Assembly (NCBI GenBank): GCA_052327205.1
Contig: CM126207.1
Span: 178,684,001-178,748,000, forward strand
Direction: 5' to 3'
Source: Somniosus microcephalus
Lineage: Eukaryota
DNA length: 64,000 bases
The notes below the pieces were generated by a model. The model did no database searches. It worked only from the letters and a program-made list of their open reading frames with translations, and was not told where the DNA came from. Made by a program: the position numbers and the translations under genes. Shown one piece after another: positions 15,901 through 56,819 of this stretch (positions are counted from its first letter, which is position 1; each line of letters starts with the position of its first letter).

Positions 15901-16063
15901 AGACAAAACGCTGACCGGCGAAGGTTAAGTTTACCGTCCGTTTACCGAACGTACGCATGGCAGCGCCGTTTATTGCCACGAGGGAAGGCCCATGGCTGCC
16001 GGATAGTAGGTCCAGCTTTGAAGCTGGGAGGATGCTGCACTGTGAACCAGTGTCGCACAGGAA
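12930..16063 (-). pseudogene. Gypsy pol (protease-RT-RNase H-integrase) with a 1-nt frameshift near 13500
   Basis: DTG protease, YLDD, TTDASD RNase H, HGLSHPG and MDLVGP..SDRG..QANG integrase motifs; LVYGQTL continues as RVPGDF in another frame. Downstream end approximate. Confidence 0.9.
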
Positions 16064-22370: not shown

Positions 22371-22759
22371 TATAAAAGCAGTTGAATATGCTCTGTCTAA
22401 TCTCAGACATGATGCCCCTTGGGTGAGGTGACGGAGCTCTGCGGGCAGTGTGGACCTGTACTCCAGCAGGAGGGACTGTCTTCAACAGCAGAGGAGAACC
22501 TGGCAAGAGAGAGTTTGAAGTTTCACATTCTTTTCATTGCCCCTGTATTTCATAACACTGAGTTGTAACATTTTGCAGGAATGCTTAAATTCACGAGTGT
22601 TTTGTAAAAGTATTTTAAGGTGTAACTTATTGCAGGTACAACTACGTATTTCAAAATTGTTCGAACACACTGTTCCAGTTAATGAATTCAGTTTATTGGT
22701 TCTTACAGGGCATGCTCAGTGTGTCTGCACTGCCACTTGCTGCTAAGTGTGTGTGCGTG

Positions 22760-23760: not shown

Positions 23761-23894
23761 TGGTGATTGCAGCACTCCCCATCTCAGACCCGTTTGTGTG
23801 CTGGTGTATGTGACTGCAGCACTCCCTTCTCTCGGGGATATTCTCACTATTCTGTAAATGGACTGCAGATGTTGCAGTTACACTCCTTTTATGT

Positions 23895-24260
23895 CTTGTT
23901 CTCATCCTTGTTTTCAAATCCCTCCATGGTCTCGCCCCTTCCTGTCTCTGTAACCTCCTCCCGCCCTACACCCTCCCGAGTTCCCTGCGTTCCTCCAATT
24001 CTGGCCTCTTGTGCATCCCCGTTTTCCTTCGCTCCACCATTGGCGGCCGTGCCTTCAGCTGCCTAGGTCCTAAGTTCTGCAATTTCCTCCCTAAACCTCT
24101 CCGCCTCTTTCTCCTCCTTTAAAACCTATCTCTATGACCAAGCTTTAGTCGCCTGTCCTAATATCCCATGTGGCTGAGTGTCACATTTTCTCTGTTAATG
24201 CTCCTGTGAAGTGCTCCAGGACGATTTGCTACGTCATAAATGCAAGTTGTTGTTGTTGTT
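23895..24260 (+). mobile_element. L2-clade LINE 3' fragment just upstream of the VAC14 exon
   Basis: Same 3' sequence as the other L2 copies, ending AAATGCAAG(TTG)n. Confidence 0.75.
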
Positions 24261-25213: not shown

Positions 25214-26239
25214 ACAGTTTTACAGCACGGAGGCCATTCAGCCCATCGCACTTGGACCAGCTTTCTGACTGAATTATCCACTTCATCCCTTTCCCCATGT
25301 CCTCTTAAATATTTCCTTTTCAAATATTTATGCACTTGCCTTTTAAAACCTATTCTGCTACCACCGCTCCATGTACTAACAACTCTGGATAAAAAATATA
25401 AATGAATTATTCCCCTTTGTTCTTTGCTGGTGATAAATTTATGCCCTTTAGTTACCAACACATGGAACAAGAGAAATAGCTTTTCTCAATTTACCTTATC
25501 AAAGCCCCTCAATTTTCAACACCTCTCAGATCTCTTGGCCTCCAACGTTCTAATGAAAAGAGCCCATGTTCTCTGTCTCCTCCTAACCAAAGCCTCTCCA
25601 AACAGATGCTTTTCTTAAGATAGTCTGAAGATTCAGAGGTAAGGGGCCTGTTATGCAGCAAGGAATGGAAGCAGTTGTATCTGGGTACTAGCAGGTTGGA
25701 AGATTCTGGATTTTGTGCCAGTTGGTTTGTAGCCCCCGGAAGTGCCAGGAAGATTCCAGCCTCTCCTGGACCTTGGGACTCTGACTGCAAATTATCTGAA
25801 TGGGAATGGTTCAATGCTTCCATTGTGATTCCTCAGGTCTCAATACTATGGGCAAAGAGCTGAAGGCTTGACTCTCGTATACTGTGATACAGGAGGCAAT
25901 CACTTGGCAACCAGGCCAGAATTTTCTTAAAGGGATAGTGTTAATGGAGATTTTTTTTCCCCCTCCATGAAATGATGGTCAATTCGATTTGTATACGACC
26001 GTTAAGTTGCTTCTAAAGAGCAAGAAGACCACCTACACTCAGCAATCCATCTTTACAACAGATGGTGCTGTGACGTCCGATTTAATGAGCCGGCTTTTTT
26101 TGTCCTGTGCCTAGAGGGCTTTAGAAAGGTTCTAAATGAGTGTTCTGAGCACAGCAGTTTGAAGCCACTGCTTGAAGGTGTTATGTATTATAAGTTGCTT
26201 GTTTTTAAATATTGTTCCCTTGTGTTTTGTCACCGACAG

Positions 26240-26358
26240 GAAAGCTGCAATCTGTTCTGTGGCTTGTATCGTTCCTGGTGCCACAACCCTGTTGCCACAG
26301 TCTCTCTCTGCTTCCTCACACAGAACTACAAACACGCCTATGATCTCATTCAGAAATT
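26240..26358 (+). CDS. VAC14: VAC14 next coding exon
   Basis: CAG acceptor ending 26239; 119 nt encoding [39 protein letters not shown](F), in phase with the previous exon and continuing the VAC14 sequence; donor GTATCCTTTT. Confidence 0.95.
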
Positions 26359-26368
26359 GTATCCTTTT
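26359..26368 (+). promoter_or_regulatory. U12-type (minor spliceosome) 5' splice site
   Basis: GTATCCTTTT directly after the exon; exact match to the U12 donor consensus RTATCCTTT. Confidence 0.88.
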
Positions 26369-26409
26369 GTTCTAATGCAGGAGCTGGGCGGCTTGGTTCT
26401 TCTTCCAAC

Positions 26410-26790
26410 AGCTTGGCTCAGTCGTCAGCACTCATGCCTCGGGGGTCAGAAGGTTGTGGGTTTGAGCCCAGTGCAGGATTGAGTTCGTAGCCTAGTTCGG
26501 CACCGTTATACGAACAGGTCTTTAAATGAGATGTTAAACCGAGGCCGTGACTGCCTGTTCCACTGGTTCAGGCGGACGTTATAAAGATCCCGTGGCACCA
26601 TTCGAAGAGTAGAGAGTTGTCCCAGTGTCCTGAGCAACCTTTCCCCAACGTCTCCACCAACAAAAAACACAATGACTTGGTCATCTATCCCGGTTCTGCC
26701 TGTGAGACGTTCTTGGCACAGAATGTATAGTGCATTTGGCTACATAACAATCACAGCATTTCAATGCAAATGTAATTCATTAAGTGTGCA
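26410..26790 (+). mobile_element. Diverged DeuSINE
   Basis: GGCTCAG..GTCAGAAGGTTGTGGGTTTGAG head; ATGAGATGTTAAACCGAGGCC..AAAGATCCCGTGGCAC Deu domain. Confidence 0.65.
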
Positions 26791-37991: not shown

Positions 37992-38681
37992 CCATTCTTT
38001 TTCCCGCTTTCTGCGTTTTGCTTTTCAAACCTTCATTTCCAGCAAAAAAAAATTGCTTTTATTAAATTGTTTTTTAAAAAACTGAATTCATTTGTCAACC
38101 TGAAGATTCTTTTTCCTACCTTTCCCCGTTATTGTAAGGCCTCATAAACAAGGCCTCAAAGCCTGGGCCTTTCCTGCCCAGCCACGCCCGAGCTAGGTTA
38201 TTGTCCCACGGCTTCTGCTAAGCTCCCCCCACCCGTCGTCACGTAACCCGGGGCAACGGCGTCAGCCACGAGGGTCACGGGACATAAACAGGACGCGGCA
38301 TCTCTCTCTCTTCCCCACTCGGCACTTGCGGGGGGTGCGGGGCTCTCGGGAGTGCCGCTCTCGGGCGGGGCTTGGAGAGCGGGAAGGGTTACCCCCGGCA
38401 ACGGGGCCCACTGCGGCTCTTGGGCGGGGCTTGGAGAGCGGGAAGGGTTACTCCGGCAACGGGGCCCGCCGGCCGCCTTGAAACCAGCTCGGGAGGGCGG
38501 GAGTCAGCGCGCGCGCGCGCGTCAATTTCGGCCCGGACCGCAGCTAAGGTGAGTCCGGCCGGGGGGACTCAACGCGCTAGCCCGCGCATTCGGCCGGCCC
38601 TGAGGCGCTGATCCGCGGAGAGGGAGGGAGAGAGAGAGGGAGGGAGAGGAAAGAGGGGGGGAGGGGAGAGAGGAGAGGAGA

Positions 38682-41600
38682 CCCCGTCTCTCTCTCTTCC
38701 CCCCGTCTCTCTCTTCCCCCCCAGTCTCTCTCTTCCCCCCCGTCTCTCTCTTCCCCCCCGTCTCTCTCTTCCCCCCCGTCTCTCTCTTCCCCCCCGTCTC
38801 TCTCTTCCCCCCCGTCTCTCTCTTCCCCCCCGTCTCTCTCTTCCCCCCCGTCTCTCTCTTCCCCCCCGTCTCTCTCTTCCCCCCCGTCTCTCTCTTCCCC
38901 CCCGTCTCTCTCTTCCCCCCCGTCTCTCTCTTCCCCCCGTCTCTCTCTTCCCCCCCGTCTCTCTCTTCCCCCCCGTCTCTCTCTTCCCCCCGTCTCTCTC
39001 TTCCCCCCCGTCTCTCTCTTCCCCCCCGTCTCTCTCTTCCCCCCCGTCTCTCTCTTCCCCCCCGTCTCTCTCTTCCCCCCCCGTCTCTCTCTTCCCCCCC
39101 GTCTCTCTCTTCCCCCCCGTCTCTCTCTTCCCCCCCGTCTCTCTCTTCCCCCCCGTCTCTCTCTTCCCCCCCGTCTCTCTCTTCCCCCCCGTCTCTCTCT
39201 TCCCCCCCGTCTCTCTCTTCCCCCCCGTCTCTCTCTTCCCCCCCGTCTCTCTCTTCCCCCCCGTCTCTCTCTTCCCCCCCGTCTCTCTCTTCCCCCCCGT
39301 CTCTCTCTTCCCCCCCGTCTCTCTCTTCCCCCCGTCTCTCTCTTCCCCCCCGTCTCTCTCTTCCCCCCCGTCTCTCTCTTCCCCCCCGTCTCTCTCTTCC
39401 CCCCCGTCTCTCTCTTCCCCCCCGTCTCTCTCTTCCCCCCCGTCTCTCTCTTCCCCCCCGTCTCTCTCTTCCCCCCCGTCTCTCTCTTCCCCCCGTCTCT
39501 CTCTTCCCCCCCGTCTCTCTCTTCCCCCCCGTCTCTCTCTTCCCCCCCGTCTCTCTCTTCCCCCCCGTCTCTCTCTTCCCCCCCGTCTCTCTCTTCCCCC
39601 CCCGTCTCTCTCTTCCCCCCCGTCTCTCTCTTCCCCCCCGTCTCTCTCTTCCCCCCCGTCTCTCTCTTCCCCCCCGTCTCTCTCTTCCCCCCCGTCTCTC
39701 TCTTCCCCCCCGTCTCTCTCTTCCCCCCCGTCTCTCTCTTCCCCCCCGTCTCTCTCTTCCCCCCCGTCTCTCTCTTCCCCCCCGTCTCTCTCTTCCCCCC
39801 GTCTCTCTCTTCCCCCCGTCTCTCTCTTCCCCCCGTCTCTCTCCCCCGTCTCTCTCTTCCCCCCCCGTCTCTCTCTTCCCCCCGTCTCTCTCTTCCCCCC
39901 CGTCTCTCTCTTCCCCCCGTCTCTCTCTTCCCCCCGTCTCTCTCTTCCCCCCGTCTCTCTCTTCCCCCCGTCTCTCTCTTCCCCCCGTCTCTCTCTTCCC
40001 CCCGTCTCTCTCTTCCCCCCGTCTCTCTCTTCCCCCCTCCGTCTCTCTCTTCCCCCCGTCTCTCTCTTCCCCCCGTCTCTCTCTTCCCCCCGTCTCTCTC
40101 TTCCCCCCGTCTCTCTCTTCCCCCCGTCTCTCTCTTCCCCCGTCTCTCTCTTCCCCCGTCTCTCTCTTCCCCCCGTCTCTCTCTTCCCCCCGTCTCTCTC
40201 TTCCCCCCGTCTCTCTCTTCCCCCCGTCTCTCTCTTCCCCCGTCTCTCTCTTCCCCCCGTCTCTCTCTTCCCCCCGTCTCTCTCTTCCCCCCGTCTCTCT
40301 CTTCCCCCCGTCTCTCTCTTCCCCCCGTCTCTCTCTTCCCCCCGTCTCTCTCTTCCCCCCGTCTCTCTCTTCCCCCCGTCTCTCTCTTCCCCCCGTCTCT
40401 CTCTTCCCCCCGTCTCTCTCTTCCCCCCGTCTCTCTCTTCCCCCCGTCTCTCTCTTCCCCCCGTCTCTCCTCTTCCCCCCGTCTCTCTCTTCCCCCCGTC
40501 TCTCTCTTCCCCCCGTCTCTCTCTTCCCCCCGTCTCTCTCTTCCCCCCGTCTCTCTCTTCCCCCCCGTCTCTCTCTTCCCCCGTCTCTCTCTTCCCCCCG
40601 TCTCTCTCTTCCCCCCGTCTCTCTCTTCCCCCGTCTCTCTCTTCCCCCCGTCTCTCTCTTCCCCCCCGTCTCTCTCTTCCCCCCCGTCTCTCTCTTCCCC
40701 CCGTCTCTCTCTTCCCCCCCGTCTCTCTCTTCCCCCCGTCTCTCTCTTCCCCCCGTCTCTCTCTTCCCCCCCGTCTCTCTCTTCCCCCCGTCTCTCTCTT
40801 CCCCCCCGTCTCTCTCTTCCCCCCCGTCTCTCTCTTCCCCCCGTCTCTCTCTTCCCCCCGTCTCTCTCTTCCCCCCCGTCTCTCTCTTCCCCCCCGTCTC
40901 TCTCTTCCCCCCCGTCTCTCTCTTCCCCCCCGTCTCTCTCTTCCCCCCCGTCTCTCTCTTCCCCCCCGTCTCTCTCTTCCCCCCGTCTCTCTCTTCCCCC
41001 CGTCTCTCTCTTCCCCCCCGTCTCTCTCTTCCCCCCCGTCTCTCTCTTCCCCCCCGTCTCTCTCTTCCCCCCCGTCTCTCTCTTCCCCCCCGTCTCTCTC
41101 TTCCCCCCCGTCTCTCTCTTCCCCCCCGTCTCTCTCTTCCCCCCCGTCTCTCTCTTCCCCCCGTCTCTCTCTTCCCCCCCGTCTCTCTCTTCCCCCCCGT
41201 CTCTCTCTTCCCCCCCGTCTCTCTCTTCCCCCCCGTCTCTCTCTTCCCCCCCGTCTCTCTCTTCCCCCCCCGTCTCTCTCTTCCCCCCCGTCTCTCTCTT
41301 CCCCCCCGTCTCTCTCTTCCCCCCGTCTCTCTCTTCCCCCCGTCTCTCTCTTCCCCCCCGTCTCTCTCTTCCCCCCCGTCTCTCTCTTCCCCCCCGTCTC
41401 TCTCTTCCCCCCCGTCTCTCTCTTCCCCCCGTCTCTCTCTTCCCCCCCGTCTCTCTCTTCCCCCCGTCTCTCTCTTCCCCCCCGTCTCTCTCTTCCCCCC
41501 GTCTCTCTCTTCCCCCCCGTCTCTCTCTTCCCCCCGTCTCTCTCTTCCCCCCCGTCTCTCTCTTCCCCCCCGTCTCTCTCTTCCCCCCCGTCTCTCTCTT

Positions 41601-42062
41601 CCCCCCGTCTCTCTCTTCCCCCCCGTCTCTCTCTTCCCCCCCGTCTCTCTCTTCCCCCCCGTCTCTCTCTTCCCCCCCGTCTCTCTCTTCCCCCCCGTCT
41701 CTCTCTTCCCCCCCGTCTCTCTCTTCCCCCCCGTCTCTCTCTTCCCCCCCGTCTCTCTCTTCCCCCCCGTCTCTCTCTTCCCCCCCGTCTCTCTCTTCCC
41801 CCCGTCTCTCTCTCTTCCCCCCCGTCTCTCTCTTCCCCCCCGTCTCTCTCTTCCCCCCCGTCTCTCTCTTCCCCCCGTCTCTCTCTTCCCCCCCGTCTCT
41901 CTCTTCCCCCCCGTCTCTCTCTTCCCCCCCGTCTCTCTCTTCCCCCCCGTCTCTCTCTTCCCCCCCGTCTCTCTCTTCCCCCCCGTCTCTCTCTTCCCCC
42001 CCGTCTCTCTCTTCCCCCCCGTCTCTCTCTTCCCCCCCGTCTCTCTCTTCCCCCCGTCTCTC
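38682..42062 (+). repeat. 17-18 bp satellite (GTCTCTCTCTTC6-7)n, roughly 190 copies
   Basis: Direct reading; copy number estimated from length/period. Confidence 0.97.
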
Positions 42063-42179
42063 TCTCCCCCCTCAGTCGCTCTCTCTCTCTCTCTCTCCCC
42101 CAGTTTCTCCCTCCCCCCCTCAGTCGCTCTCTCTCTCTCTCTGTCTCCCAGTCTCTCTCTCTGTCTCCCAATCTCTCTA

Positions 42180-42625
42180 TCTCTTCCCCCAGTTTCTCTC
42201 TCTCTCCCCCAGTTTCTCTCTCTCTCCCCCAGTTTCTCTCTCTCTCCCCCAGTTTCTCTCTCTCTCCCCCAGTTTCTCTCTCTCTCCCCCAGTTTCTCTC
42301 TCTCTCCCCCAGTTTCTCTCTCTCTCCCCCAGTTTCTCTCTCTCTCCCCCAGTTTCTCTCTCTCTCCCCCAGTTTCTCTCTCTCTCCCCCAGTTTCTCTC
42401 TCTCTCCCCCAGTTTCTCTCTCTCTCCCCGTTTCTCTCTCTCTCCCCCAGTTTCTCTCTCTCTCCCCCAGTTTCTCTCTCTCTCCCCCAGTTTCTCTCTC
42501 TCTCCCCCAGTTTCTCTCTCTCTCCCCAGCTTCTCTCTCTCTCCCCCAGTTTCTCTCTCCCCCAGTTTCTCTCTCCCCCAGTTTCTCTCTCCCCCAGTTT
42601 CTCTCCCCCAGTTTCTCTCTCTCTC
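42180..42625 (+). repeat. 20-bp tandem repeat (AGTTTCTCTCTCTCTCCCCC)n
   Basis: Perfect period 20 over ~42191-42420, degenerating towards the gap. Confidence 0.92.
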
Positions 42626-42833
42626 CCCGTCTCTCTCCCCCCCTCAGTCTCTCTCTCTCTATCTCCCAGTCTCTCTCCTCCAGACTCTCTCTCCGTCTCT
42701 CTCTCTCCTCCAGTCTCTCCCTCCTCCAGTCTCTCTCTCTCTCCCCATCTCTCTCTCCGTCCCCCTCTCTCTCTCTCTCCTTCCCTCTCTCTCTTTCTCT
42801 CTCCTTCCATCTCTCTCTCTCTCTCCTTCCATC

Positions 42834-43132
42834 NNNNNNNNNNNNNNNNNNNNNNNNNNNNNNNNNNNNNNNNNNNNNNNNNNNNNNNNNNNNNNNNNNN
42901 NNNNNNNNNNNNNNNNNNNNNNNNNNNNNNNNNNNNNNNNNNNNNNNNNNNNNNNNNNNNNNNNNNNNNNNNNNNNNNNNNNNNNNNNNNNNNNNNNNNN
43001 NNNNNNNNNNNNNNNNNNNNNNNNNNNNNNNNNNNNNNNNNNNNNNNNNNNNNNNNNNNNNNNNNNNNNNNNNNNNNNNNNNNNNNNNNNNNNNNNNNNN
43101 NNNNNNNNNNNNNNNNNNNNNNNNNNNNNNNN
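42834..43132. other. Assembly gap (299 N)
   Basis: Run of N. Confidence 1.
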
Positions 43133-44249
43133 CGCTCCCTCTCTATCTTCCAACAACAACATGCCCTCAAAAAAGCCTCGGCACCGCCGGGCACCCCCAG
43201 CTAGTTAATAATCTGCCTTCCTGCTTTTGCCACCAAAGTGGATAACCTCACATTTATCCACATTATAGTGCATTTGCCATGTTTCTGCCCAATCACCCAA
43301 CCTGTCCAAATCGTACTGGAGTTTCACGACATCCTCCTCACAGCTTACCCTCCCACCCAGCTTTGTGTCGTCTGCAAATTTGGAGATATTACATCCAATT
43401 CCCTCGTCCAGATCATTAATATATAGTGTGAACAGCTGGGGTCCTAGGATCGATCCTTGCGGTACCCCACTAGTCACTGCCTGCCACTCGGAAAACGACC
43501 CGTTTATTCCAACTCTTTGCTTTCTGTCCGCCAACCAGTTCTCGATCCAAGTCAATACCTTGCCCCCAATCCCATGTGCCTTAATTTTGCATGCTAATCT
43601 CTTATGTGGGACCTTATCGAAAGCCTTCTGAAAGTCCAAATACACCACATCCACTGGTTCTCCCTTATCTATTTTACCAGTTACATCCTCAAAAAATTCC
43701 AGTAGATTAGTCAAGCATGATTTACCTTTTGTAAATCCATGTTGACTTCGTCAGATCCTGTCACTGCTTACCAAGTGCTCTGCTATTACATCTTTTATAA
43801 TAGATTCTAGCATTTTCCCCACTACCGAGGTCGGGCTTACCGGTCTATAATTCCCCGCTTTTTCTCGACCACCTTTTTTGAATAGTGAGGTAACATTAGC
43901 TACCCTCTGTTAAGTCTGTGTGTCCCAGTTATGCTTATTATAAATCACTGGACACAGACCACAAGAATAACTTTAACAGGTCTTTACTATTCGGAGGTCA
44001 GGGCTGAACTGCCCAGTAAATCACTACACAACGCTTATATACCGGTGTGGTCACCACCGGTACTACAGTATACAGCAGCCAAGAGAAAGTAGTACATCTC
44101 TTAAGGTAGTTCTCTTAAGGTGGAACAGGTTACATACACCACAATCCTCCCTTTTTAGCTTAACAGTTATATCCCCATTTAACATAACATAATAACATAT
44201 ATATATATATTATATACAACTTCATGCAAAACAGTTCAAAGATTCAGTC

Positions 44250-45564
44250 TCTGAGGAGGCCTCCTGATTCGAGTTGGATAACGCCTTTCAGGGGTCTCTG
44301 ATTCTCGTTGCTGGGGTGACTCATCTAGTTGATCTCTTATGGATTGGACATCATCATCAGGTACATTCACTTCTGAGGTAGATGCTTCAGGTTCACTAAC
44401 TTCTTCCACGGTTGTCTAAGCCATAACCCTGGGTTCGACCCTTGTTCTCGATTCTACCAGTTGGTCAGCATGACGCCGTATTACATTTTCACCAATATCT
44501 ACCGTGTACATCAGGGGTCCTTGTCTGGCCCGAATTGTTCCAGATTGCCATTTCTCGTTTTTATAGTCCTGGGCTAACACTGGTTGTCCTATTTCGAAAC
44601 TTCGCGTGGTCTTGTTATTTATATGCTGGAACTGTTTGTTTTCAACTTCCCTCCGCACATTTGGTTTTAACAAGTCCAACCTGGACCGCAACCTCCTGTT
44701 ATAGAACATCATGGCAGGACTTTGGTTTGTCACTGCATGAGTGGCGTTTCAATATGCCAGTAGGAATTTGTCCACCTTGTGTTGTAGTGGAATCTGATCT
44801 TCGCTCATGGCCTTTATTGCTTTTTTGAATGTTTGTACAAATCTCTCGGCCAACCCGTTTGTAGCCGGATGATATGGGGCAGAGGTATCATGTTTCACCC
44901 CATTCTTCTTCATGAATCTCTGGAATTCTTCTGACACGAACTGCGGTCCGTTGTCTGAACATATTTGTTCTGGCAATCCATTTCTCGCAAATATCGTTCT
45001 TAGCACCGCGATCGTCTTTTCCGAGGTAGTGGTAGTCATCTTAATCACTTCTGGCCATTTAGAATGTGCGTCCACCGCAATTAAAAACATGGAGTCCATG
45101 AATGGACCAGCAAAGTCAATATGTACACGTTGCCGTGGGGTTGAAGGCCATTCCCATGGATGCAGCGGTGCAATCGGAGGTGCATTTTGCACTTTTTGGC
45201 ACCCTGAGCAGCTTTTCGTCAGATCCTCTATCTGTTGGTCGATACCCGGCCACCACACATAAGCCCTAGCAAGGCTTTTCATCTTGACTCCCCCCAGATG
45301 ACCTTCTTGCAGTTCCTTTAGAACTCTCTTAACTTAGGAGGAATAATCACCCTTGTTCCATACATCAATGTTCCTTGACAGACGGACAGCTGTTCTCGTC
45401 TTGCTGAGAATGCTGGTAACAGTGGATCACCATGTGCTGGCCATCCCTTCACTGTCACTTCGTAGACCCGGGACAGTGTCGGGTCGTTTCTGGTTTCTCT
45501 TTCAATACTTGCATTGGTGACTGGTAAACATTCGATGATGGTCGAGTGAAATAACTCAACAGGG
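44250..45564 (-). pseudogene. Gypsy integrase region with frameshifts and a premature stop
   Basis: HLGGVKMKSLAR..CSGC..HIDFAGP..SDNGPQF..NGLAER split across frames; FLLAY*NATH stop at ~44749. Downstream end approximate. Confidence 0.85.
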
Positions 45565-48177
45565 TCAAACCGTCGGTGCCTCCTCCTCTGTAGGTAGTGG
45601 CAGGCGCGACAGCCCATCAGCATTACCATGCTGCTTTGTACCTTTGAATTCGATCTGATATTGATGTGCCCCTAGGAAAAGGGACCATCTCTGGAGTCTC
45701 TGTGCTGTCATCACCGAAACACCCTTCTTAGGGTTAAAAATGGATACCAACGGCTGGTGGTCTGTCAGAAGCATAAACTTTTGGCCCTGCAGGTAATGAT
45801 TAAACTTCTTTACTCCCCACACAAGGCTGAGAGCCTCCCTATCTATCTGAGCATAGTTGCGCTCAGCGGAGGTCAATGATCTGGATGCGAACGCAACTGG
45901 CCTCTCCAGGCCATTTGGCAACTTGTGTGAGAGTACTGCCCCAATACCATATGGAGAAGCATCACAAGCCAAACGAATAGGCAGCGTTGGGTTGAAGTGA
46001 GCCAACACTTCCTCTGAGGTGATCAATGCGTTGCTTTTGCGAAAGGCCCTCTTACAGTCCTCGCTCCACTTCCATGGTACTCCCTTCCGCAAAAGAGCGT
46101 TCAGCGGGTGCAGCACCGTGGATAAATTTGGCAGAAACTTATGGTAATAGTTAATCAACCCTAGGAACGACCTCAACTGGGATACATGAGCGGGAGCCTT
46201 CACAACAGCTTTGATCTTGTCAGGAGACTTATGAAGCCCCTCCTGGTCAATGACATGACCACAGTACGAGATCCGCTTCTGAAAGAACTCACATTTCTGG
46301 CGATTAACTCGAAGTCCATATTCTTTCAATCTGGTGAGCACCAGTTCCAAATTTGCAAGGTGTTCCTCGTCATCATCTCCTGTAATCAGAATATCGTCCA
46401 GGTAACATTGTGTGCCTGGAATTCCCTGTAATACCTGCTCCATGGCCCTCTGCCAAATGGCTGGAGCCGATGCCACTCCAAAAACCAGTCTATTATACCG
46501 GTACAAGCCTGTATGCGTGTTGATCGTGAGATACTGGCGTGACTCTTCCTCAACTTCCATCTGTAAGTACGCCTGCGCCAGGTCTATCTTGGTGAAGTGT
46601 TTCCCGCCAGACAACGAAGCGAAGATATCCTCAATCCGCGGAAGCGGATACTGCACCGTGTGAAGCACCGGATTAACAGTGATCTTGAAATCTCCACAGA
46701 TGCGAACCTTCCCCGGTTCCCCCGGCTTGTTGCTCGATGAACGCTTCATGACAGGGACAATGGGCGTGGCCCACTCACTCCAGTCTACCTTAGACAGCAC
46801 TCCTGAACGTTCTAGCCCTTCCAGCTCAGCTTCCACAGCAGGTCGTATCACATAAGGTACCGGTCTGGCTTTGAAAAATTTCGGGTTTGCATGTTCTTCA
46901 ACCTTGATGTTTGCCGGAATTCCTCTCGGTGTTCCCAGTCCCTGTTGGAACACCTCTTTAGCATCGTCCAATATTCTGGACAATCGTTTAGGTTTGACAT
47001 CTTTTTTACCGGAATCTACCGTTGGTGCTTTGAAGGAATGCCAGTCCATATTTATTTTCCTAATCCACTCCCGTCCCAGTAGTGGTGGACCTCCCTCAGG
47101 TAGCACATATAAGTCCATTCCTCGGCTTTCTTTGCCCTTGTGGACCACCTTTACCTCTATCTTCCCGATGGGGTATACTCTTTGCCCCGTGTATGTTTTC
47201 AATACAATCTCCATATCCCGTAGGGGAATATGTGGGAATAACCTTTTGTAATCTTGCTTATTCATGACCGTCAATGCCGATCCAGTGTCCAATTCCATCT
47301 TCACTTGGACTCCTGCTATCTGAAGTGTGACCCAGTTTGTTTGGAGGTCTGCTTCATTACCAACATTGTGTACTCTTAGACTACCCAGTTCATTACTACT
47401 GGAGTCTGAATCTGACTTCTGTTCGTTCGAACTGTTCTCTGTCACCTTGTGTACCTTTCTGTACTTTTCCTGCGGTGACTTTTTGTTGCTGGCCTTCTTT
47501 CCTGACCGGCATACTTCAGCTATGTGACCAAGCCTGCCACATTTTCTGCATTCCTGATTTTTGAACCAGCACTGGTTCTGATCGTGCGTTGTCTTTCCAC
47601 AACGATAACATTTTACTGTACCCAAGACCATTTGATTGGTGCTGAGTTCCGGTGACCGTAGCTGCATTTCCGCAGTGCCTCTCGCTGCGGCTTCATGCGA
47701 TGCTGCAATAGTGACAGCTTTATCAAGCGTAAGATCATTCTCCTCAAGCAGTCGCTTTTGTGTTCCTTTTAACAATCCACACACAAATTTATCTCTCAGT
47801 GCATCTGCTAGTCCTGTTCCAAATTGACAGTACTTTGATAGCTTACGCAGTTCAATTAAAAATTCAGCGTTGCTTTCGTCTTTCAGCTGCGTTCTTCTGT
47901 AAAATTTAAATCGTTCCGCTATCATCAGCGGCGTGGGGTTTAAATGATTTTTCAGGACAGTAACAATATTCGCGAAAGTCTGATCCGCCGGTTTATCTGG
48001 TGATAGAAGGTGCTTCAATAGCCTGTATGTCTTCGCACCCATTGAGCTTAATAAGGTTAGTGCTTTCTCATCATCTGGTACCTTATTTGCTTTACAATAA
48101 ACTGCCATGCATTCTACATACGTGGTCCAATCTTCGATATCGCTATCAAAGGTATTAATGTTCCCATGTTTAGGCAT
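45565..48177 (-). CDS. Gypsy gag-protease-RT-RNase H ORF (870 aa, truncated by frameshift)
   Basis: Two Cys/His knuckles (CYRCGKTTHDQNQC, CRKCGRLGHIAEVC), LDTGS protease, YLDD, LACDASPYG. Confidence 0.9.
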   Translation of the reverse strand: MPKHGNINTFDSDIEDWTTYVECMAVYCKANKVPDDEKALTLLSSMGAKTYRLLKHLLSPDKPADQTFANIVTVLKNHLNPTPLMIAERFKFYRRTQLKDESNAEFLIELRKLSKYCQFGTGLADALRDKFVCGLLKGTQKRLLEENDLTLDKAVTIAASHEAAARGTAEMQLRSPELSTNQMVLGTVKCYRCGKTTHDQNQCWFKNQECRKCGRLGHIAEVCRSGKKASNKKSPQEKYRKVHKVTENSSNEQKSDSDSSSNELGSLRVHNVGNEADLQTNWVTLQIAGVQVKMELDTGSALTVMNKQDYKRLFPHIPLRDMEIVLKTYTGQRVYPIGKIEVKVVHKGKESRGMDLYVLPEGGPPLLGREWIRKINMDWHSFKAPTVDSGKKDVKPKRLSRILDDAKEVFQQGLGTPRGIPANIKVEEHANPKFFKARPVPYVIRPAVEAELEGLERSGVLSKVDWSEWATPIVPVMKRSSSNKPGEPGKVRICGDFKITVNPVLHTVQYPLPRIEDIFASLSGGKHFTKIDLAQAYLQMEVEEESRQYLTINTHTGLYRYNRLVFGVASAPAIWQRAMEQVLQGIPGTQCYLDDILITGDDDEEHLANLELVLTRLKEYGLRVNRQKCEFFQKRISYCGHVIDQEGLHKSPDKIKAVVKAPAHVSQLRSFLGLINYYHKFLPNLSTVLHPLNALLRKGVPWKWSEDCKRAFRKSNALITSEEVLAHFNPTLPIRLACDASPYGIGAVLSHKLPNGLERPVAFASRSLTSAERNYAQIDREALSLVWGVKKFNHYLQGQKFMLLTDHQPLVSIFNPKKGVSVMTAQRLQRWSLFLGAHQYQIEFKGTKQHGNADGLSRLPLPTEEEAPTV

Positions 48178-51100
48178 CCTTGCAAGTTTTTAAATTTTTC
48201 TTTTTCTCAAAATGGTGGCTTCCCGCGCTTGTCGTCTTCCCCCGCCTACTAAACTGGCGGCTTCCCGCGCTTGGCGGTCTTTCCCGCGCTCGTCGTCTTC
48301 CCCCGCCGACTACAATGGCGGATTCCTGCGTTTGCCTTCTTCCCCCGCTGGCTGCAATGGCGATTGCCGTGCTGCTGCCATTCTCGCCTCCCCAGCGGTT
48401 CTCAATTCCCCGACGCTGCTTTTACTCCCCCGCGGTTCCCGTGGGCATTCACGCTTCCCCTGCTGTTGCGCCTCTCAGCCCCGCATGCAGCCCAGTCCTT
48501 TGCACCGGCTGCGTTTGAGTTCTCCGCGGCTCTCGTGCCTTAAGCTGCCCCAGTCGCTGCACCTCTCGGCCTCGATTGCAGCCCGGCCCTTTTCACTGGC
48601 CGTGGTCGAGTTCTCCGCCCTTTTTCCTCCTTTTTCCCTCCCCCACTCCACAGTCAACGCGGCCGACTTTCTGCTCGTGTCGCTGATCGGCTTACCCACC
48701 ACCGTGGTAGAAGGGATGATCACTGCCTGTCGCTGATGGAGGGCTTCGTGGTCAGAATTTTTCTTTTTAACCCGGGTTCTCGATGCCTCCCGTGCGATGG
48801 TGCTCAGCAGGATGATGAGGGCGGATGCCTCTTCTCGACGCCCGTTCTGAGGACGAAGCTGCCTTGGATGTAAAACTGCCGCAGGGTAAGATCGGACTCG
48901 TCGCCACTGTTAAGTCTATGTGTCCCAGTTATGCTTATTATAAATCACTGGACACAGACCACAAGAATAACTTTAACAGGTCTTTACTATTCGGAGGTCA
49001 GGGCTGAACTGCCCAGTAAATCACTACACAACGCTTATATACCGGTGTGGTCACCACCGGTACTACAGTATACAGCAGCCAAGAGAAAGTAGTACATCTC
49101 TTAAGGTAGTTCTCTTAAGGTGGAACAGGTTACATACATCACACCCTCCAATCCATGGGTACTGTTCCAGAGTCTATCGAGTTCTGGAAGATGACCAGCA
49201 ATGCAGCTACTATTTCCAGGGCCACTTCCTTAAGTACCCTGGGATGTAGATTATCAGGCCCTGGGGATTTATCGGCCTTTAGTCCCATCAATTTTCCTAA
49301 CACCATTTCCCTACAAATACTGATTTCTTTCAGTTCCACCCTTTCATCAGGCCCTATGTTCCCCGGCATCTCTGGGAGGTTATTTGTGTTCTCCTTTGTG
49401 AAGACAGAACCAAAGTATGAATTTAGTTGGTCTGCCATTTCTTTGTTTCCCATTATAAATTCCCCTGATTCTGACTGTAAGGGACCTACGCTTGACTTCA
49501 CCAATCTTTTTCTCTTCACATACCTATAAAAGCTTTTACAGTCAGTTTTTATGTTGCCTGCTAGCTTGCTCTCATATTCTATTTTCCCTTTCTTAATTAA
49601 TCCCTTTGTCCTCCTTTGTTGAATCCTAAACTGCTCCCAATCCTCAGGATTATTGCTTTTTCTGGCCAATTTATATGTCGTCTCCTTGGATCTTATGCTA
49701 TCCCTAATTTCCCTTGTTAGCCACGGTTGAGTCACCTTTTTTTTATTTTTATGCCAAACTGGGATGAACAAATTCTGTTGCTCATCCATTCGGTCTTTGA
49801 ATGTTTGCCATTGCCTATCCACCGTCAACCCTTTGGGTGCCATTCCCCACTCAATCCTACCCAACTCGCTCCTCAGACCATCGTAGTTTCCTTTATTTAA
49901 ATTGAGGACCCTAGTCTGAGTCAACTACTTCATTCTCCATCTTAATGAAGAATTCGATCATATTATGATCGCTCAGACCCAAGGGGCCTCGTACAACAAG
50001 ATTGCTAATTAATCATTTGTCGTTACATAATACCCAGTCTAAGATGGCCTGATCTCTGGTTGGTTCCTCGACATATTGGTCCAGGAAACCATCCCGTAAA
50101 CACATTAGTGGAAGTGGTATATAGACCTCCCAACAGTAAGGCAGAGGTTGGGGATGGCATCGTAGGTTTAAGGAGCATCGTAAAGGCGGGGAGGTTATGG
50201 GAGGGAATTCCAGAGCTTAGGGCCTAGACAGCTGAAGGCACGGCCACCAATGGTGGGGCGAAGGAAGTAGGGGATGCACAAGAGGCCAGAATTGGAGGAA
50301 TGCAGCGCTCTCGGAGGGTTATAGGGCTGGAGCAGTTTACAGAGATAGGGAGGGGCAAGGCCATGGAGGGCTTTGAACACGAAGATGAGAATTTTAAAAT
50401 CGAAGTGTTTGGGGACCAGGAGCCAATGTAGGTCAGCAAGCACAGAGCTGATGGGTGAACGGGATTTGGTGTGAATGAAGCGCTAAATGTCCTTTCTCCA
50501 TGCAGATGGCGACAGACCTGCGGTGTATTTTCAGCTTTTGTGCACAGATGTTGCCTCCTTTCCTTAGCTACCTGCTTGGGTCTTAACAGTATGTGGTGCG
50601 GGGAGATCAAAGAAAGGGGGGATCTGCAGCCTTCTATAGTTCAAGCATTCACATAGAAGGCCTGTATGAGGGGTACATGTTATAACTAAAGACTTGGTTG
50701 AATTTAACCTGTAGTGGGTTTCAATTGAGCGGGCAAGGGCGTATCGTGTGTGAAACTCACTCACTGGTGTAGGGTATTTTAACTCCCAGGCGTCTGTTAA
50801 ACGCTGCCGGTCCACTGCCTGTTCTGGTTGCGAAGTGGGCACAGAGCAGGCAAAGATCGGACATCCCTTGGCTGCCAGCCAGCGTTCAGGGAGGGCTTCG
50901 CAGGAGGGGGAGAATCCCAGATAGGGGAGGGCAGGACCTCCCCGTGAAGCCCAGAGGAGCATTCCCACTCCTCCTGACCCCACAAAGAAATGCTTTCACT
51001 TGTCGGGAGGGCCTCTTCATCCTTCCCACCAGCCGCCAACCAGCTTCCTCCTGGCGGGAAAGCCCTATTGGTGTAATAGGCCCCCGATTTGCACAAATTT

Positions 51101-51818
51101 ATGAGGCTCCAGCCTGCTTTAGGCCGATACCTCACCCACCAGCAGAGCCCTACATGTTAATATCAGACGGGAAAGGGTCAGATTCCAAGCAGTTAAATGA
51201 CCTCGTTTTTAACTACCCAGTTTTCGCTGGGTGGGTAGAGTTAAAATGGACCTGCTGGTCTTTCCCTTAAATAATCATTTACAGGCCTTTACTCCAAAAG
51301 AATGGACTGAATTGAGTGAAGAGCCAGTGAATATGGAATATTTGATAACATTTTGCATAACTTTATGGAATACTGGTCGGCTTTCCCTCCAAAGTCTATT
51401 GTATTTAGCGTTTGCCAATGAAGATAATGAGATCTTTGCAATATGTATAAGGGAACCTTTTAAAGGAGGAAGTGTATTCAAATAATGTCAGATGATCCTA
51501 AGTATTAGCGATCTGTATACAGACCAGTGTGTCTCAGCCTCTTGTTGCCTCATCTTCTGTTCCAGGGCTGCTGGCTAAAGACAATCCTTTCTTGCGGAAC
51601 TCCCTCCACTGAATTGGGAGCCTACTGTCATGCACAAAGAACTAGATTATGCTGATTTCCAGTTAGATTCCAGCTGATGCTTGAGCAAGACTGGCATCCA
51701 AGTCTTGACTAAATGGTGCCGTGACGTGAGTACATTGTTCCTTTCATGAATGGAATATGCAACAACAGTGAGCTTCTTGTAGGGCGTGGGGGTGTCTTGG
51801 GATCTTGACCATAGTGGT

Positions 51819-54800
51819 TGTGATAAAAATGCTAACTTCCGGGAAGTTATGTCATCACTTCCTGTGAACTATGAACTATGAACTGTGTACATACCTCACT
51901 TCCTGTAAATGTCACTTCCTGTTGGACTGGTATAAATACTGGTCTGTTCAGTATTGTAAGAGGCTTCTACCAGAGGCATGGTAAAGACCTCTCTTGTATA
52001 TAGTGTGTTTATAAGTTACTTAAAGCTTACTTTAAAGTTACTTGATGGTCAGTCTCCTTTTCTTACATCAATTTAAGTAACTTAGTATTTACACTGACAA
52101 ATACTAGACCTTCAGACAAACTCGGAAGTTAAGGATCCAGGGAACCACCCATCATGGATAAAATCCTTAGACCTATTCGTCTGGACTTGGACCCGAATAC
52201 ACCAGCAGCTGGCAGGGTATGGAAGCATTGGTATCGTACTTTTGAGAATTTTCTGGATGAATGTAAAGTGGATGCTCCTGCTAAATTGAAGATACTTGTC
52301 AATTATGTGACCCCAAAAGTGTTCGAATATGTTGATGAATGGGATAATTACGAAGAGGTGATTCGGGCACTTAAGAAACTGTATGCGAAGACCCCAAATG
52401 AGGTCTATGCTAGACATCTACTGGCCACAGCCCGACAAGGGCCAGGGGAATCAATTGACGAATTCCTGCAAGAACTTCGCAGGCTCAGCGTAGATTGTAA
52501 CTTTCAGGCAGCCTCAGCTGAGCTGTACCGCCAAGAAATGATTCGTGATGCTTTCATCTGCGGGATTGCCTCTCCATTTATACGCCAGCGTCTACTAGAA
52601 AGTAAAACACTTGAGCTACAAAAAGCTTTTGACCTAGCTTGTTCACTGGATTTGGCAAAGAGAAATGCAGACCTCTATCAGCTGCCCAGATCTCGATCTG
52701 CTGCTGTAGCTGCAACCAGACAATTCAAGCGGTCTCAGGTGAACCCTATCATGGGGGAATCTAATTCTGATAATTCTGATGAAGAAGAGGAGGACGACCC
52801 CACTTTAGCAGCCTCTTGGCAATCTAGGAAGGAATGCTTCTTTTGTGGAGATGCTTTTCACCCTAGGAAAACCTGCCCTGCTCGCAATGCAATCTGCAGT
52901 TATTGCGGGAAAAAAGGACACTTTGCTAAAGTTTGCCTATCAAGGGCCTCTACGAGGGCCAATCCAGCTAAGGCCTACCGAGCTGCCCCAATTAGGGCCT
53001 ATCAAGATGCTCCAGCTAGGACCTATCAAGCTTCCTCTCGAGCTCTCTCCCGAAGAAGCACACCGAGAGTTTTAGCCACTCTCTGTGCAACGACACCAAT
53101 TACAGCTGCTTGCCCACAGAACCTGTCTCAGGCAGCCACAAAAATTTCAATTAAAGGGCATACCTTAGATGCCTTAATTGACTCAGGAAGTACTGATAGT
53201 TTCATTAAGGAACAGATTGTTGCGAAATTGAAACTACATGTCTTCCCATCGGACCAGGCAATTGCGATGGCCCAGTCATCACTTAATACCAGAATCTCTG
53301 GCTTTTGTGTTGTTGATATGACACTTCATGGTCGTATGTATCCCTCCACCCGACTTTCAGTGCTCAAAGACTTATGTAGTGATCTCCTCTTAGGGCTGGA
53401 CTTCCAAAAACAGCATAAGAAACTCACCATTGAGTTTGGTGGATCCAAACCCGGACTTACTATTTCTAATATACCATCTAAATTACCATTTTGTGCATTA
53501 TCAGCAGCTTCACTTGATGAACCCTCATTATTTGCCAGTATTCCGCCTCAATGCCAACCGATAATAACGAAATCGCGGCGCTTTAATCAGGGAGACCAAT
53601 CTTTTATTGCGGCTGAAATCTCTCGACTTCTAGCAGAGGATATCATTGAACCATGTTCGTCGCCCTGGCGGGCTCAAGTCGTCATTGTCAAGAACCCTCT
53701 AAAACCTCACAAACAGCGACTATGCATCGATTATTCGCAAACCATCAATCAATATACCGACTTGGACGCCTACCCATTGCCACGCATTGATGATATGGTT
53801 AATAAACTGGCCGAATACAAAGTGTTCTCAACTTACGATTTAAAAAGTGCCTATCATCAGTTACCCTTGAAGGTCTCAGATAAGCAGTACACAGCCTTTG
53901 AGGCTAATGGACGGCTGTACCAATTTCGTCGCCTCCCATTCGGGGTTACTAATGGAGTGGCTGTCTTTCAACGGGCAATGGATGGCCTGGTTAAGCAGGA
54001 AAACCTAAGGGACACTTTTCCCTATCTTGATAACATTACCATTGCAGGTCACGATCAACAGGAACACGACTCCAACCTCCAAAAATTTCGGGATGCCCTC
54101 CATCGCCGTAATTTGACCCTGAATGAATCCAAATCTGTTGAGTCGCAACCGACCATCAACATCCTTGGCTACTGCGTAGGCAATGGTATCATTAAGCCAG
54201 ACCCAGAAAGACTTCGCCCGCTCCAAGAGCTCCCGTCACCTAAGAATCCGGCTTCTTTACGTCGGGCTCTCGGTCTGTTTGCATACTACGCTAAATGGAT
54301 TCCTCATTTTTCGGACAAAATCCAACCCTTGCTGCATGCTAGATCATTTCCACTGGGAACAGCGGCTGTTGCAGCCTTTAACCTTCTCAAAAAACAGTTG
54401 GAGAAAGCGGCTCTTCACTCCATCGATGAGAATCTCCCTTTCGTGGTTGAATGTGATGCCTCGGAGGTGGCGATCTCGGCTACTCTGAATCAGGAAGGTC
54501 GTCCTGTAGCATTTATGTCCAGGACCTTACAAGGTGCCGAGCTACATTATCCTCCGGTTGAGAAAGAAGCCACAGCCATCATAGAGGCAGTACGGAAGTG
54601 GAACCATTTTCTAGCTCGCCAGCACTTTACATTGATCACGGACCAACGATCAGTCGCCTTCATGCTCGATAATCGAAAACGAACCAAAATTAAGAATAAT
54701 AAAATACAACTTTGGAGGATGGAACTGGCCTCTTTTGGTTATACCATTCTCTATCGGCCTGGCAAGGAGAATGTGGCCCCGGACACCCTCACACGGGCGT

Positions 54801-56365
54801 TCTGCTCCACTATGTCATCCTCCACTCTCATGGATGTCCACAATGGTTTGTGTCATCCTGGCGTTACGCGCATGCTACATTTCGTACGATCACGGAATCT
54901 CCCTTTTTCCACTGGAGATGTAAAGAAAATATGCTCAGAATGCCGGCTTTGTGCGGAATTAAAACCTCAGTTCTTCCGCCCCTCAGATGGTATACTCATA
55001 CATGCAACCCAACCGATGCAACGACTTAGCATCGATTTTAAGGGCCCAGTGCCCTCTTCAACTCGGAACACATATTTGCTCACCATGATCGACGAATATT
55101 CACGTTTTCCGTTTGCCTTCCCCTGCTCCAATATGCTGGCGTCCACAGTAATCTGCTGCCTTGAGCAGGTATTTTCTCTCTGTGGCATGCCGGCTTATAT
55201 TCACTCAGACCGGGGTCCATCCTTTATGTCAAGGGAACTCAAGGACTACCTCTCAGAACGGGGAATTGCTGCAAGCAAAACAACACCATACCATCCCATC
55301 GGAAATGGGCAGGTAGAGAGGTATAACGGTATCATCTGGAATTCCGTACGTCTCGCTTTAAGATCTCGGGGCCTACCAGACCAGCAATGGGAAACAGTGC
55401 TTCCGGATGCATTGCACTCTATACGGTCCCTGCTTTCTACAGCCACAAATACTACACCTCATGAGCGGTTCTTTGGATTCCAGCGTCGCTCATCTCATGG
55501 AACATCACTCCCGTCATGGCTAACTACTCCTGGACCTGTATTACTCCGAAGATACGTTCGGACGTCTAAAAATGACCCTCTTGTAGACGAGGTCGAACTA
55601 ACCGATGCCAACCCCACCTATGCAAACATACGATATTCCGACGGCCGAGAATCTACCGTATCATTACGGGATCTGGCTCCCTGCCCACCAGGACCTAGTG
55701 GGACATCGGGTGATGGCATTTCACCAGGAAACTCTTGGGACCTATCGGGTACCCCTCTCCAGGATCCTGATCGGACACCAACTAGCTTGGTGCCGGCAGA
55801 ACCCCGTGCTCAAGGTTGCGACCCTCCCAGTACCGTGCATGAAAGTACTGATCCGCCACAGACCAGCTCTGCACCTCCCTCTGAACAGAGGCAGTCCGAC
55901 TTTGAACCTATTGGGGCTCGCACTCGAAGCCATGATCTCCCCGACCCTTCACAGGGCAATCCAGGCCACACAGACTCTGACCAATGGCCAACCGCATGTA
56001 AGCGGACCAGCGACCCTCTACGACGGGAATCCAAACGGGTACGACTCTTCCTTGTTCGGCGGCTGCGGACCAAAAGGTAGACCACAGCCTCCTAATCCTG
56101 CAGGAGGGAAGAATGTGATAAAAATGCTAACTTCCGGGAAGTTATGTCATCACTTCCTGTGAACTATGAACTATGAACTGTGTACATACCTCACTTCCTG
56201 TAAATGTCACTTCCTGTTGGACTGGTATAAATACTGGTCTGTTCAGTATTGTAAGAGGCTTCTACCAGAGGCATGGTAAAGACCTCTCTTGTATATAGTG
56301 TGTTTATAAGTTACTTAAAGCTTACTTTAAAGTTACTTGATGGTCAGTCTCCTTTTCTTACATCA
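51819..56365 (+). mobile_element. Intact Gypsy LTR retrotransposon with apparently identical LTRs
   Basis: 252-bp LTRs 51819-52070 and 56114-56365 with no differences found by eye; 5-bp TSD GTGGT; PPT CAGGAGGGAAGAA; no TGG-type PBS. Confidence 0.97.
52154..56080 (+). CDS. Gypsy Gag-Pol polyprotein, 1308 aa, uninterrupted
   Basis: Knuckles CFFCGDAFHPRKTC / CSYCGKKGHFAKVC, LIDSGS protease, RT with YLDN, ECDAS RNase H, HNGLCHPG..CSECRLC and D-D-E integrase motifs. Confidence 0.95.
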   Translation: MDKILRPIRLDLDPNTPAAGRVWKHWYRTFENFLDECKVDAPAKLKILVNYVTPKVFEYVDEWDNYEEVIRALKKLYAKTPNEVYARHLLATARQGPGESIDEFLQELRRLSVDCNFQAASAELYRQEMIRDAFICGIASPFIRQRLLESKTLELQKAFDLACSLDLAKRNADLYQLPRSRSAAVAATRQFKRSQVNPIMGESNSDNSDEEEEDDPTLAASWQSRKECFFCGDAFHPRKTCPARNAICSYCGKKGHFAKVCLSRASTRANPAKAYRAAPIRAYQDAPARTYQASSRALSRRSTPRVLATLCATTPITAACPQNLSQAATKISIKGHTLDALIDSGSTDSFIKEQIVAKLKLHVFPSDQAIAMAQSSLNTRISGFCVVDMTLHGRMYPSTRLSVLKDLCSDLLLGLDFQKQHKKLTIEFGGSKPGLTISNIPSKLPFCALSAASLDEPSLFASIPPQCQPIITKSRRFNQGDQSFIAAEISRLLAEDIIEPCSSPWRAQVVIVKNPLKPHKQRLCIDYSQTINQYTDLDAYPLPRIDDMVNKLAEYKVFSTYDLKSAYHQLPLKVSDKQYTAFEANGRLYQFRRLPFGVTNGVAVFQRAMDGLVKQENLRDTFPYLDNITIAGHDQQEHDSNLQKFRDALHRRNLTLNESKSVESQPTINILGYCVGNGIIKPDPERLRPLQELPSPKNPASLRRALGLFAYYAKWIPHFSDKIQPLLHARSFPLGTAAVAAFNLLKKQLEKAALHSIDENLPFVVECDASEVAISATLNQEGRPVAFMSRTLQGAELHYPPVEKEATAIIEAVRKWNHFLARQHFTLITDQRSVAFMLDNRKRTKIKNNKIQLWRMELASFGYTILYRPGKENVAPDTLTRAFCSTMSSSTLMDVHNGLCHPGVTRMLHFVRSRNLPFSTGDVKKICSECRLCAELKPQFFRPSDGILIHATQPMQRLSIDFKGPVPSSTRNTYLLTMIDEYSRFPFAFPCSNMLASTVICCLEQVFSLCGMPAYIHSDRGPSFMSRELKDYLSERGIAASKTTPYHPIGNGQVERYNGIIWNSVRLALRSRGLPDQQWETVLPDALHSIRSLLSTATNTTPHERFFGFQRRSSHGTSLPSWLTTPGPVLLRRYVRTSKNDPLVDEVELTDANPTYANIRYSDGRESTVSLRDLAPCPPGPSGTSGDGISPGNSWDLSGTPLQDPDRTPTSLVPAEPRAQGCDPPSTVHESTDPPQTSSAPPSEQRQSDFEPIGARTRSHDLPDPSQGNPGHTDSDQWPTACKRTSDPLRRESKRVRLFLVRRLRTKR

Positions 56366-56819
56366 GTGGTTTTACCAAATACCATTATTAGCCAGATTGC
56401 TGGAAACTCCCTTCTGCTCTGGGACCTGGAAAGACGTGGGATGAACTTTTGCCAGCTGCTTTATTGAAATTGGTTGGTGGTGATGTCACAGCACCAAGCT
56501 GCCTGTAGCTGAGCATTAAGTCGTCTTCCTCATGGGAAGAGGCCATAAAGATTGCTGGTCTGGGAATTCAAAATGTTGGCAAAGGTTCAGTACACTGTGC
56601 TGTTGTTGGCGAGCTTTAAATATGGCCATTCACACTAGACCTGGGAGTTCTGATGTTGAAAACACATTCTGTTCTGAAGCACCAGCATTCGCACCTCATA
56701 TTGGGGAGGGGAGGGGTTGCACTAGTTGTAATATGGATTTTGGTGTCATTGCAGTTTCCACGGTTATGAAGGTGATTGTCAGGCAGGAGACAGCAGAGCC
56801 TGGCCACAATTTTTCAATT

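Follow-up and report, generated by a model that had tools for sequence, protein, structure and literature searches.

An intact Ty3/Gypsy retrotransposon in the analysed 64,000-nt stretch of contig CM126207.1 (hereafter the window, whose positions are used throughout) carries no tRNA-type primer site, but a perfect 13-nt complement to its own long terminal repeat (LTR), and very probably self-primes its reverse transcription in some form. The element occupies 51819-56365 on the + strand. Self-priming of the non-chromovirus lineage to which it belongs is well supported, at the level of sequence comparison, by the conserved position of the complementarity, its co-variation across families, the lack of a chromodomain and a reverse transcriptase (RT) tree.

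Primer site and structure of the window element

The 5' LTR is followed by one A (52071) and then by TTTAAGTAACTTA (52072-52084), with no TGG. As the preliminary description of this DNA had reported, TTTAAGTAACTTA is the exact reverse complement, over 13 nt, of TAAGTTACTTAAA (52012-52024) within the LTR. A match of at least 13 nt was reached in 1 of 2000 mononucleotide-shuffled LTRs, and none of 664 stretches of the element interior reached 10 nt against the own LTR. TGG-type sites are present in the window's two other Gypsy elements, whose self-matches to the LTR cover just 4 and 6 nt. In predicted folds, the stem core has a pair probability of 0.7-1.0 under four assumed start sites, and a U5 stem can form between 52042-52047 and 52066-52071. 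No tRNA was detected in the window by ARAGORN, and Rfam gave chance-level matches only. The elements of this architecture are listed below.

51814..51818, + strand: left target-site duplication GTGGT, with the same 5 nt at 56366-56370
51819..52070, + strand: 5' LTR, 252 nt, TG...CA, ending in CATCA, identical to the 3' LTR
51931..51937, + strand: TATAAAT, the TATA box of the preliminary description, not conserved at that distance in related families
52012..52024, + strand: candidate self-primer, complementary to the primer site at every position, with 46 nt from segment end to LTR end
52019..52024, + strand: CTTAAA, likely poly(A) signal, where 17 of 26 families have ATTAAA/AATAAA
52025..52038, + strand: small hairpin, 4 bp here, from the first base past the candidate primer, in the same register in relatives
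52024/52025, + strand: predicted cut site, at the junction of candidate primer and hairpin
52035..52047, + strand: partial second copy of the LTR segment, private to the family of the window element
52071..52071, + strand: lone base separating the primer site from the LTR, an A in 25 of the 26 families
52072..52084, + strand: primer-binding position without TGG, complementary to 52012-52024
52154..56080, + strand: single open reading frame (ORF) of 1308 aa that opens with the ATG at 52154 and specifies Gag, protease, RT, RNase H and integrase
56102..56113, + strand: polypurine tract adjoining the 3' LTR
56114..56365, + strand: 3' LTR, identical to the 5' LTR
56366..56370, + strand: right target-site duplication GTGGT, matching the left copy

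The open frame spans 52133-56080 without a break, and its Gag part contains two Cys/His knuckles. Ty3/Gypsy features are all present (TG...CA LTRs, target duplication, polypurine tract, and the order protease, RT, RNase H, integrase), and the closest relative of solved structure is the Ty3 RT. We conclude that this is an intact, young Ty3/Gypsy element outside the chromoviruses. Three 24-nt tandem units (52964-53035) lie between the Gag knuckles and the protease.

The second partial copy had been put forward as a further sequence able to pair with the primer site. It does exist at 52035-52047, but its predicted pairing with the site has a probability of at most 0.12 and it occurs in 1 of 26 families, and it was rejected as an alternative primer.

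Own-LTR pairing is conserved and co-varies across families

We collected relatives through a Gag search, which yielded 145 proteins, with shrimp, woodlouse, coral, tunicate (P0064) and Trichinella among the named relatives in the 120 listed, and through a pattern scan of metagenome contigs, which yielded at least 120 loci (~240 estimated). No relative was found in viral-contig scans, and two runs on DNA contigs of other organisms stop short of the junction of LTR and primer site (X11, two short pieces; X15, gag only). From 121 loci (120 metagenomic and one viral), 91 were confirmed as Gag relatives and 30 unconfirmed loci were left out, including the homologous L054, which failed the rule; another 3 had too little upstream DNA. 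The final set comprised 88 relatives and the window element, that is, 89 sequences in 33 families (single linkage, 80% over 80 nt of gag DNA). LTR ends were located with a 9-nt anchor derived from two-LTR loci, which is circular for the first bases because it was taken from those same loci; L021 was placed by hand. Two LTR copies were present in 16 relatives, 3 of them cut off, leaving 13 usable relatives from six families, among which L033 and L036 may represent one insertion and the LTR ends of L011 and L040 were refined with a 4-nt cue.

Among these two-LTR relatives, 12 of 13 showed an 11-17-nt Watson-Crick match, and no TGG occurred within 5 nt of the LTR end in any of the 14 sequences formed by them and the window element. 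An anchor-free search of the 255 nt before gag found a longest perfect stem of at least 12 bp in 52 of 89 sequences vs 3 of 445 dinucleotide shuffles, although in 2 of the 52 (L109, L118) it was another leader stem. With all loci taken together, at least 12 of 13 positions matched in 56 of 89; with the first-listed copy per family, 12-13 of 13 own-LTR positions matched in 20 of 33 families, whereas only 13 of 1056 cross-family swaps reached 12-13 and none reached 13.

We then considered single columns, numbered by distance back from the segment's 3' end, in the 26 families with a match of at least 11 of 13 (7 of 33 lay below that and were left out). These families carry 26 distinct 13-mers. 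Columns -5 to -9, -11 and -12 contained three or four pair types, and permuting the families equalled them in none of 5000 trials; of the 338 cells at -1 to -13, G-U pairs filled 2. Outside the selected stretch, -14 and -15 were each paired in 18 of 26 families vs ~8.7 expected (p 0.00015), and pairing was at background from -17 on. Eight close pairs were compared: three within families, four sister pairs from a Gag tree, and the window element with its nearest row. The tree covered 24 families (L012 and L019 being too short) and was mostly unresolved, with 4 of 21 inner branches starred, and was used just to choose sister pairs. Seven of the eight pairs held 14 double changes and no single change.

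Three points count against this picture. Values at -1 to -13 are biased upward because the 26 families were picked for their match; the pair L004/L062 has 3 single changes and no double change; and the own-LTR match falls below 11 of 13 in 7 of 33 families (L003, L028, L058, L068, L082, L109/L118, L117), although by eye several of these look decayed or without an LTR, and none has TGG at the expected place. The leader of L109, L118 and L063 contains a 12-bp stem formed from a short duplicated or inverted stretch, in a family without the usual match.

Chance complementarity might be expected in an AT-rich region whose terminal bases are common to all families, but the swap test and the double changes rule it out, as do the shuffles, the stem search and the permutation, so its probability is negligible. 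The preliminary description had staked its proposal on conservation among related elements and on co-variation between primer site and LTR segment. Both were found: most families match their own LTR at a fixed register, and co-variation was upheld by the swap test, the permutation and the double changes. As judged from these alignments, the predicted own-LTR pairing is a lineage trait, conserved in position and co-varying.

The lineage lies outside the sampled chromoviruses

A chromodomain (PF00385) or Tf2-type SH3 domain (PF24626) gave no match in the element at E up to 1, and neither was among the listed domains of 120 relatives; both were detected in the positive controls L122 and L123. In an unrooted tree of RT-RNase H sequences (32 rows, quick search), 15 lineage members fell on one side of a branch with an SH-aLRT of 100 and 15 chromovirus-group proteins on another branch with an SH-aLRT of 90; this tree contains neither Tf1 nor sushi, and its amphibian and algal rows are classed as chromoviruses by similarity to L123 only. 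The RT-RNase H of the window element is 25-36% identical to the 15 chromovirus-group proteins and 30% identical to the two tRNA-primed Gypsy elements of the window. Thus, the absence of a chromodomain beside positive controls, together with the separation in the RT tree, sustains the earlier assignment of the element to non-chromoviruses, and on these sequences the lineage lies outside the sampled chromoviruses on a separate long branch.

Within the lineage, the RT-RNase H (53594-54763) is 75-76% identical to P0001 and P0002 and groups with the shrimp protein P0054. The controls L122-L124 are chromovirus retrotransposons of fungal type that IMG/VR lists among its viral contigs; a Tf1-like 10-nt self-match is present in two, and the third has a self-match with one mismatch.

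Poly(A) hexamer, hairpin and rival roles of the stem

Across the 26 families, the segment ends 23-62 nt (median ~42) before the LTR end. Its last six bases are AATAAA or ATTAAA in 17 families, and a second such hexamer follows downstream in 0 of these 17 vs 4 of the 9 others (Fisher p 0.008); an A occupies each of the final three positions in 24-26 of 26. In 16 of 26 families vs 4.0 expected (0 of 1000 shuffles), the first base past the segment opens a hairpin with 4 bp or more, and the excess is limited to offsets 0-1; this hairpin was spotted post hoc. Because it begins exactly past the segment, it likely marks the cut site.

These features bear on priming by the RNA 3' end, raised in the preliminary description, in which the segment's 3' copy, shortened by cutting or trimming so that it ends at AAA, would anneal to the primer site and prime. 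The polarity is correct, and the final AAA could be a trimmed tail. However, the segment itself terminates in the hexamer, which should put the RNA end 10-30 nt beyond; the 45 nt preceding the segment contain AATAAA or ATTAAA in 0 of 26 families, and no poly(A) loose ends at 52021-52024 are among the RNA rows listed. We therefore consider this route very improbable.

The paired segment ends in the hexamer, and the stem might only mask the 5' poly(A) signal while something else, such as a tRNA fragment, serves as primer. The HIV-1 poly(A) hairpin is a precedent for hiding a 5' poly(A) signal, and the part of the literature accessible to us describes half-tRNA and bipartite priming in other elements. 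Nevertheless, the 3' arm begins exactly one base past the LTR end in 25-26 of 26 families, which is the primer register; G-U pairs are nearly absent, unlike in a merely structural stem; and 26 different 13-mers mean that one tRNA fragment cannot serve all families. A purely masking role thus appears quite improbable.

Where the primer would begin

The reading that we prefer, and judge reasonably probable, is that the element self-primes in the manner of Tf1, using a primer of 13-15 nt located at the 5' end of its RNA or close to it. Transcription would start ~13-18 nt upstream of the final A of the segment, the RNA 5' end would fold onto the primer site, by analogy with Tf1, and the element's RNase H, as in Tf1, would cut at the junction of the duplex and the second hairpin (52024/52025). 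From the released 3'-OH, the RT would then copy U5 and what little is left of R. Since polyadenylation would fall 10-30 nt past the hexamer, the remaining 10-30 nt of R, from the cut to the poly(A) site, could serve strand transfer, and the same fold would mask the 5' copy of the poly(A) signal. Near absence of G-U pairs would follow if the uncut primer is the template for the primer site in every cycle. The pairing, register, co-variation, hexamer and hairpin are seen in the sequences; start and cleavage for such a 5'-proximal primer are inferred.

Alternatively, transcription might start well upstream (~51960), and one cut past AAA would free a long capped primer ending in an internal segment. 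The preliminary description had placed the segment deep inside R/U5 on the basis of TATAAAT at 51931. That motif is present and makes a good TATA box, but it has no counterpart at that distance in 24 of 25 related families, the remaining one having TATATT there; TATAAA within 140 nt upstream occurs only in the family of the window element, and weaker TATAT[AT] words lie at varying distances in five further families. An internal primer would agree with the greater stability of the stem with a longer leader, with 25 of 26 families having no TATA box 30 nt ahead of the segment, with a match that mostly begins with T, and with upstream YAG acceptor-like sites (11 of 26 families), which hint at a transcribed, processed region. 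Against it, family-specific pairing ends near -15, and pairing that stops ~15 nt from the segment 3' end is easier to reconcile with a primer close to the RNA 5' end than with a deep-internal segment; a long primer would also offer no natural plus-strand strong-stop end.

Reads from two RNA-seq runs of the species label in which the element is best represented were also considered (922 and 2233 on 51760-52660, from 24% and 31% of the runs, respectively). These reads mix 3' LTRs, solo LTRs and related subfamilies, duplicates are likely, and sense and antisense calls assume the usual stranded library. Presumed sense depth did not rise at 51946-51976 in either run, which speaks against an upstream start. 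In the bin 52008-52038 it rose in both runs (9 to 25 and 101 to 133), and 12 molecules end at 52007 in one run, both of them weak signals in favour of a 5'-proximal primer. Taken together, we regard an internal primer as unlikely.

A primer at the RNA 5' end has evidence to contend with as well. No TATA box stands at a fixed distance before the segment across families, whereas in two of the fungal-type chromovirus controls the 10-nt self-match starts with A, 32-34 nt past a TATA box. The first base of the match (-13) is T in 24 of 26 families and not a start-site purine. Duplexes flanking the primer site, as in the Tf1 pretzel, are barely enriched (4.4 vs 3.9 bp, p 0.04; 4.5 vs 4.1, p 0.03). 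The RNA ends at 52007 come from a single run and may be duplicates, and many reads derive from 3' or solo LTRs. Moreover, 38 of 81 and 86 of 300 RNA reads (29-47%) have A>G at 52018, within the candidate primer, which would result in a G-U pair unless 52078 changes too; the 40 variant rows listed, of 98, include no such change at the partner position.

An 11-nt primer of Tf1 length, with an initiator-like A in column -11 as its first base (17 of 26 families have A there, and 25 of 26 have G at -10), was rejected, as pairing runs to -15. Acceptor-like sites (pyrimidine tract and YAG) upstream of the segment occur in 11 of 26 families vs 4.3 expected (p 0.002, post hoc), including 51988-52003 in the window and L004, L010, L019, L021, L027, L029 and L075; eight lie 21-28 nt before the segment end. 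No joints indicating an intron within the LTR were seen in the 922 and 2233 RNA reads, and six long open frames share no donor. In U3 (51884-52007), plus-strand first mates exceed others two- to fivefold in both runs, which would represent antisense LTR RNA if the libraries are stranded.

Other features of the window

The second Gypsy element (43908-49143, minus strand), which served as a control, has 236-nt LTRs ~99% identical to each other, a double Cys/His knuckle, a TGG-type primer site 1 base past the LTR, and a pol broken between the RNase H and integrase frames. A third Gypsy element (12216-17203, minus strand) has a DUF7041 Gag, a TGG-type primer site and a 352-nt 5' LTR, and an insertion splits its 3' LTR. 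Its LTR holds GTTCATTAAAACC, which resembles the segment end of the self-priming lineage and is consistent with a generic LTR poly(A) motif. Elsewhere, the window contains a VAC14-like exon (26006-26479) and long low-complexity tandem arrays at 38500-43200 and 22600-24000; the exon and the repeats suggest a vertebrate host.

Implications for retrotransposon priming

To our knowledge, self-priming is experimentally established only for fission-yeast chromoviruses (Tf1 and kin), and it has been treated as a mark of Tf1/sushi elements. Our literature search, which reached some sources in part (including PMC6934838, PMC2864245, PMC5445492 and PMC5371799) and lay outside Repbase, Dfam, GyDB and subscription journals, found no description of self-priming in a non-chromovirus animal Gypsy lineage. 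The window element therefore likely represents, as far as that search reaches and going by sequence, a known mechanism in a lineage where it was not previously described.

Hairpin priming has been proposed to precede tRNA priming (PMC3601003, partial text), and a second, phylogenetically separate self-priming Gypsy lineage bears on whether hairpin priming came first or arose repeatedly. We tentatively propose, as a possibility, that a widespread animal Gypsy lineage acquired tRNA-free priming independently of Tf1/sushi or kept it from the ancestor of all LTR elements, with its own poly(A) signal forming the primer 3' end; in the nucleus the fold would mask the 5' poly(A) signal, and once cut at the conserved duplex-hairpin junction it would give the primer, possibly an internal one. 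The hosts of this lineage include corals, crustaceans, tunicates, nematodes and the vertebrate-like genome of the window. Such elements would evade control by tRNA-derived fragments aimed at tRNA-type primer sites, and would be overlooked or ranked low by annotation pipelines that require a tRNA match. With the hexamer at the segment end and the hairpin starting next to it, the constant geometry yields a cut prediction to the single base.

Comparison with known self-priming and related systems

The window element may resemble Cigr-1 of Ciona, whose LTRs measure about 245 bp and which has a lone ORF of some 1200 codons and a Gag of the echinoderm type; this resemblance is a lead only. Members of the Cigr-1 clade, RepeatMasker class Gypsy-Cigr, are known from tunicates and molluscs (PMC6238403), and a tunicate protein, P0064, is among our relatives; the accessible part of that paper contains nothing on the Cigr-1 primer site and 0 occurrences of 'PBS'. 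A protein-motif search of the supplement of PMC8556966 gave no match in 11 of its 14 files.

Among plant elements, the accessible text of PMC6317226 predicts self-priming for the TAR (Houba/Osr-1) lineage of Ty1/copia and for Tcn1, from a complement of at least 10 nt located 0-5 nt past the 5' LTR, and reports tRNA priming for plant non-chromoviruses. The window element has such a complement, but TAR and Tcn1 differ in belonging to another superfamily or to the chromoviruses, and to plants.

The closest parallel is offered by Tf1, Tf2, Tj1 and the wider Tf1/sushi group, which, in the portions available of the reports, likewise lack a tRNA site and have a primer position complementary to their own LTR in a perfect Watson-Crick duplex (PMC7175516, PMC4600332, PMC5341516, bioRxiv 10.1101/2022.12.06.519325). 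In Tf1, the first 11 bases pair with the primer-binding site (PBS), with RNase H cutting between bases 11 and 12 (PMC7175516, partial text); a single ORF is common to Tf1, as partly accessible sources describe it, and the window element. Unlike Tf1/sushi elements, however, the window element is without a chromodomain or Tf2-type SH3 domain. The duplex measures 13-15 nt in its lineage vs 10-11 in the Tf1/sushi group, and starts 1 base past CA vs 2 in L123 and L124, whose ends are inferred from CA only. It also ends in a poly(A) hexamer with no TATA box at start-site distance, and the primer is succeeded by an LTR-internal hairpin, whereas the pair of duplexes adjoining the PBS in the pretzel is just marginal. 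By its predicted pairing, the element works like Tf1, yet it is no member of Tf1/sushi by two features, the missing chromodomain and SH3 domain and its place in an RT tree drawn without Tf1 or sushi.
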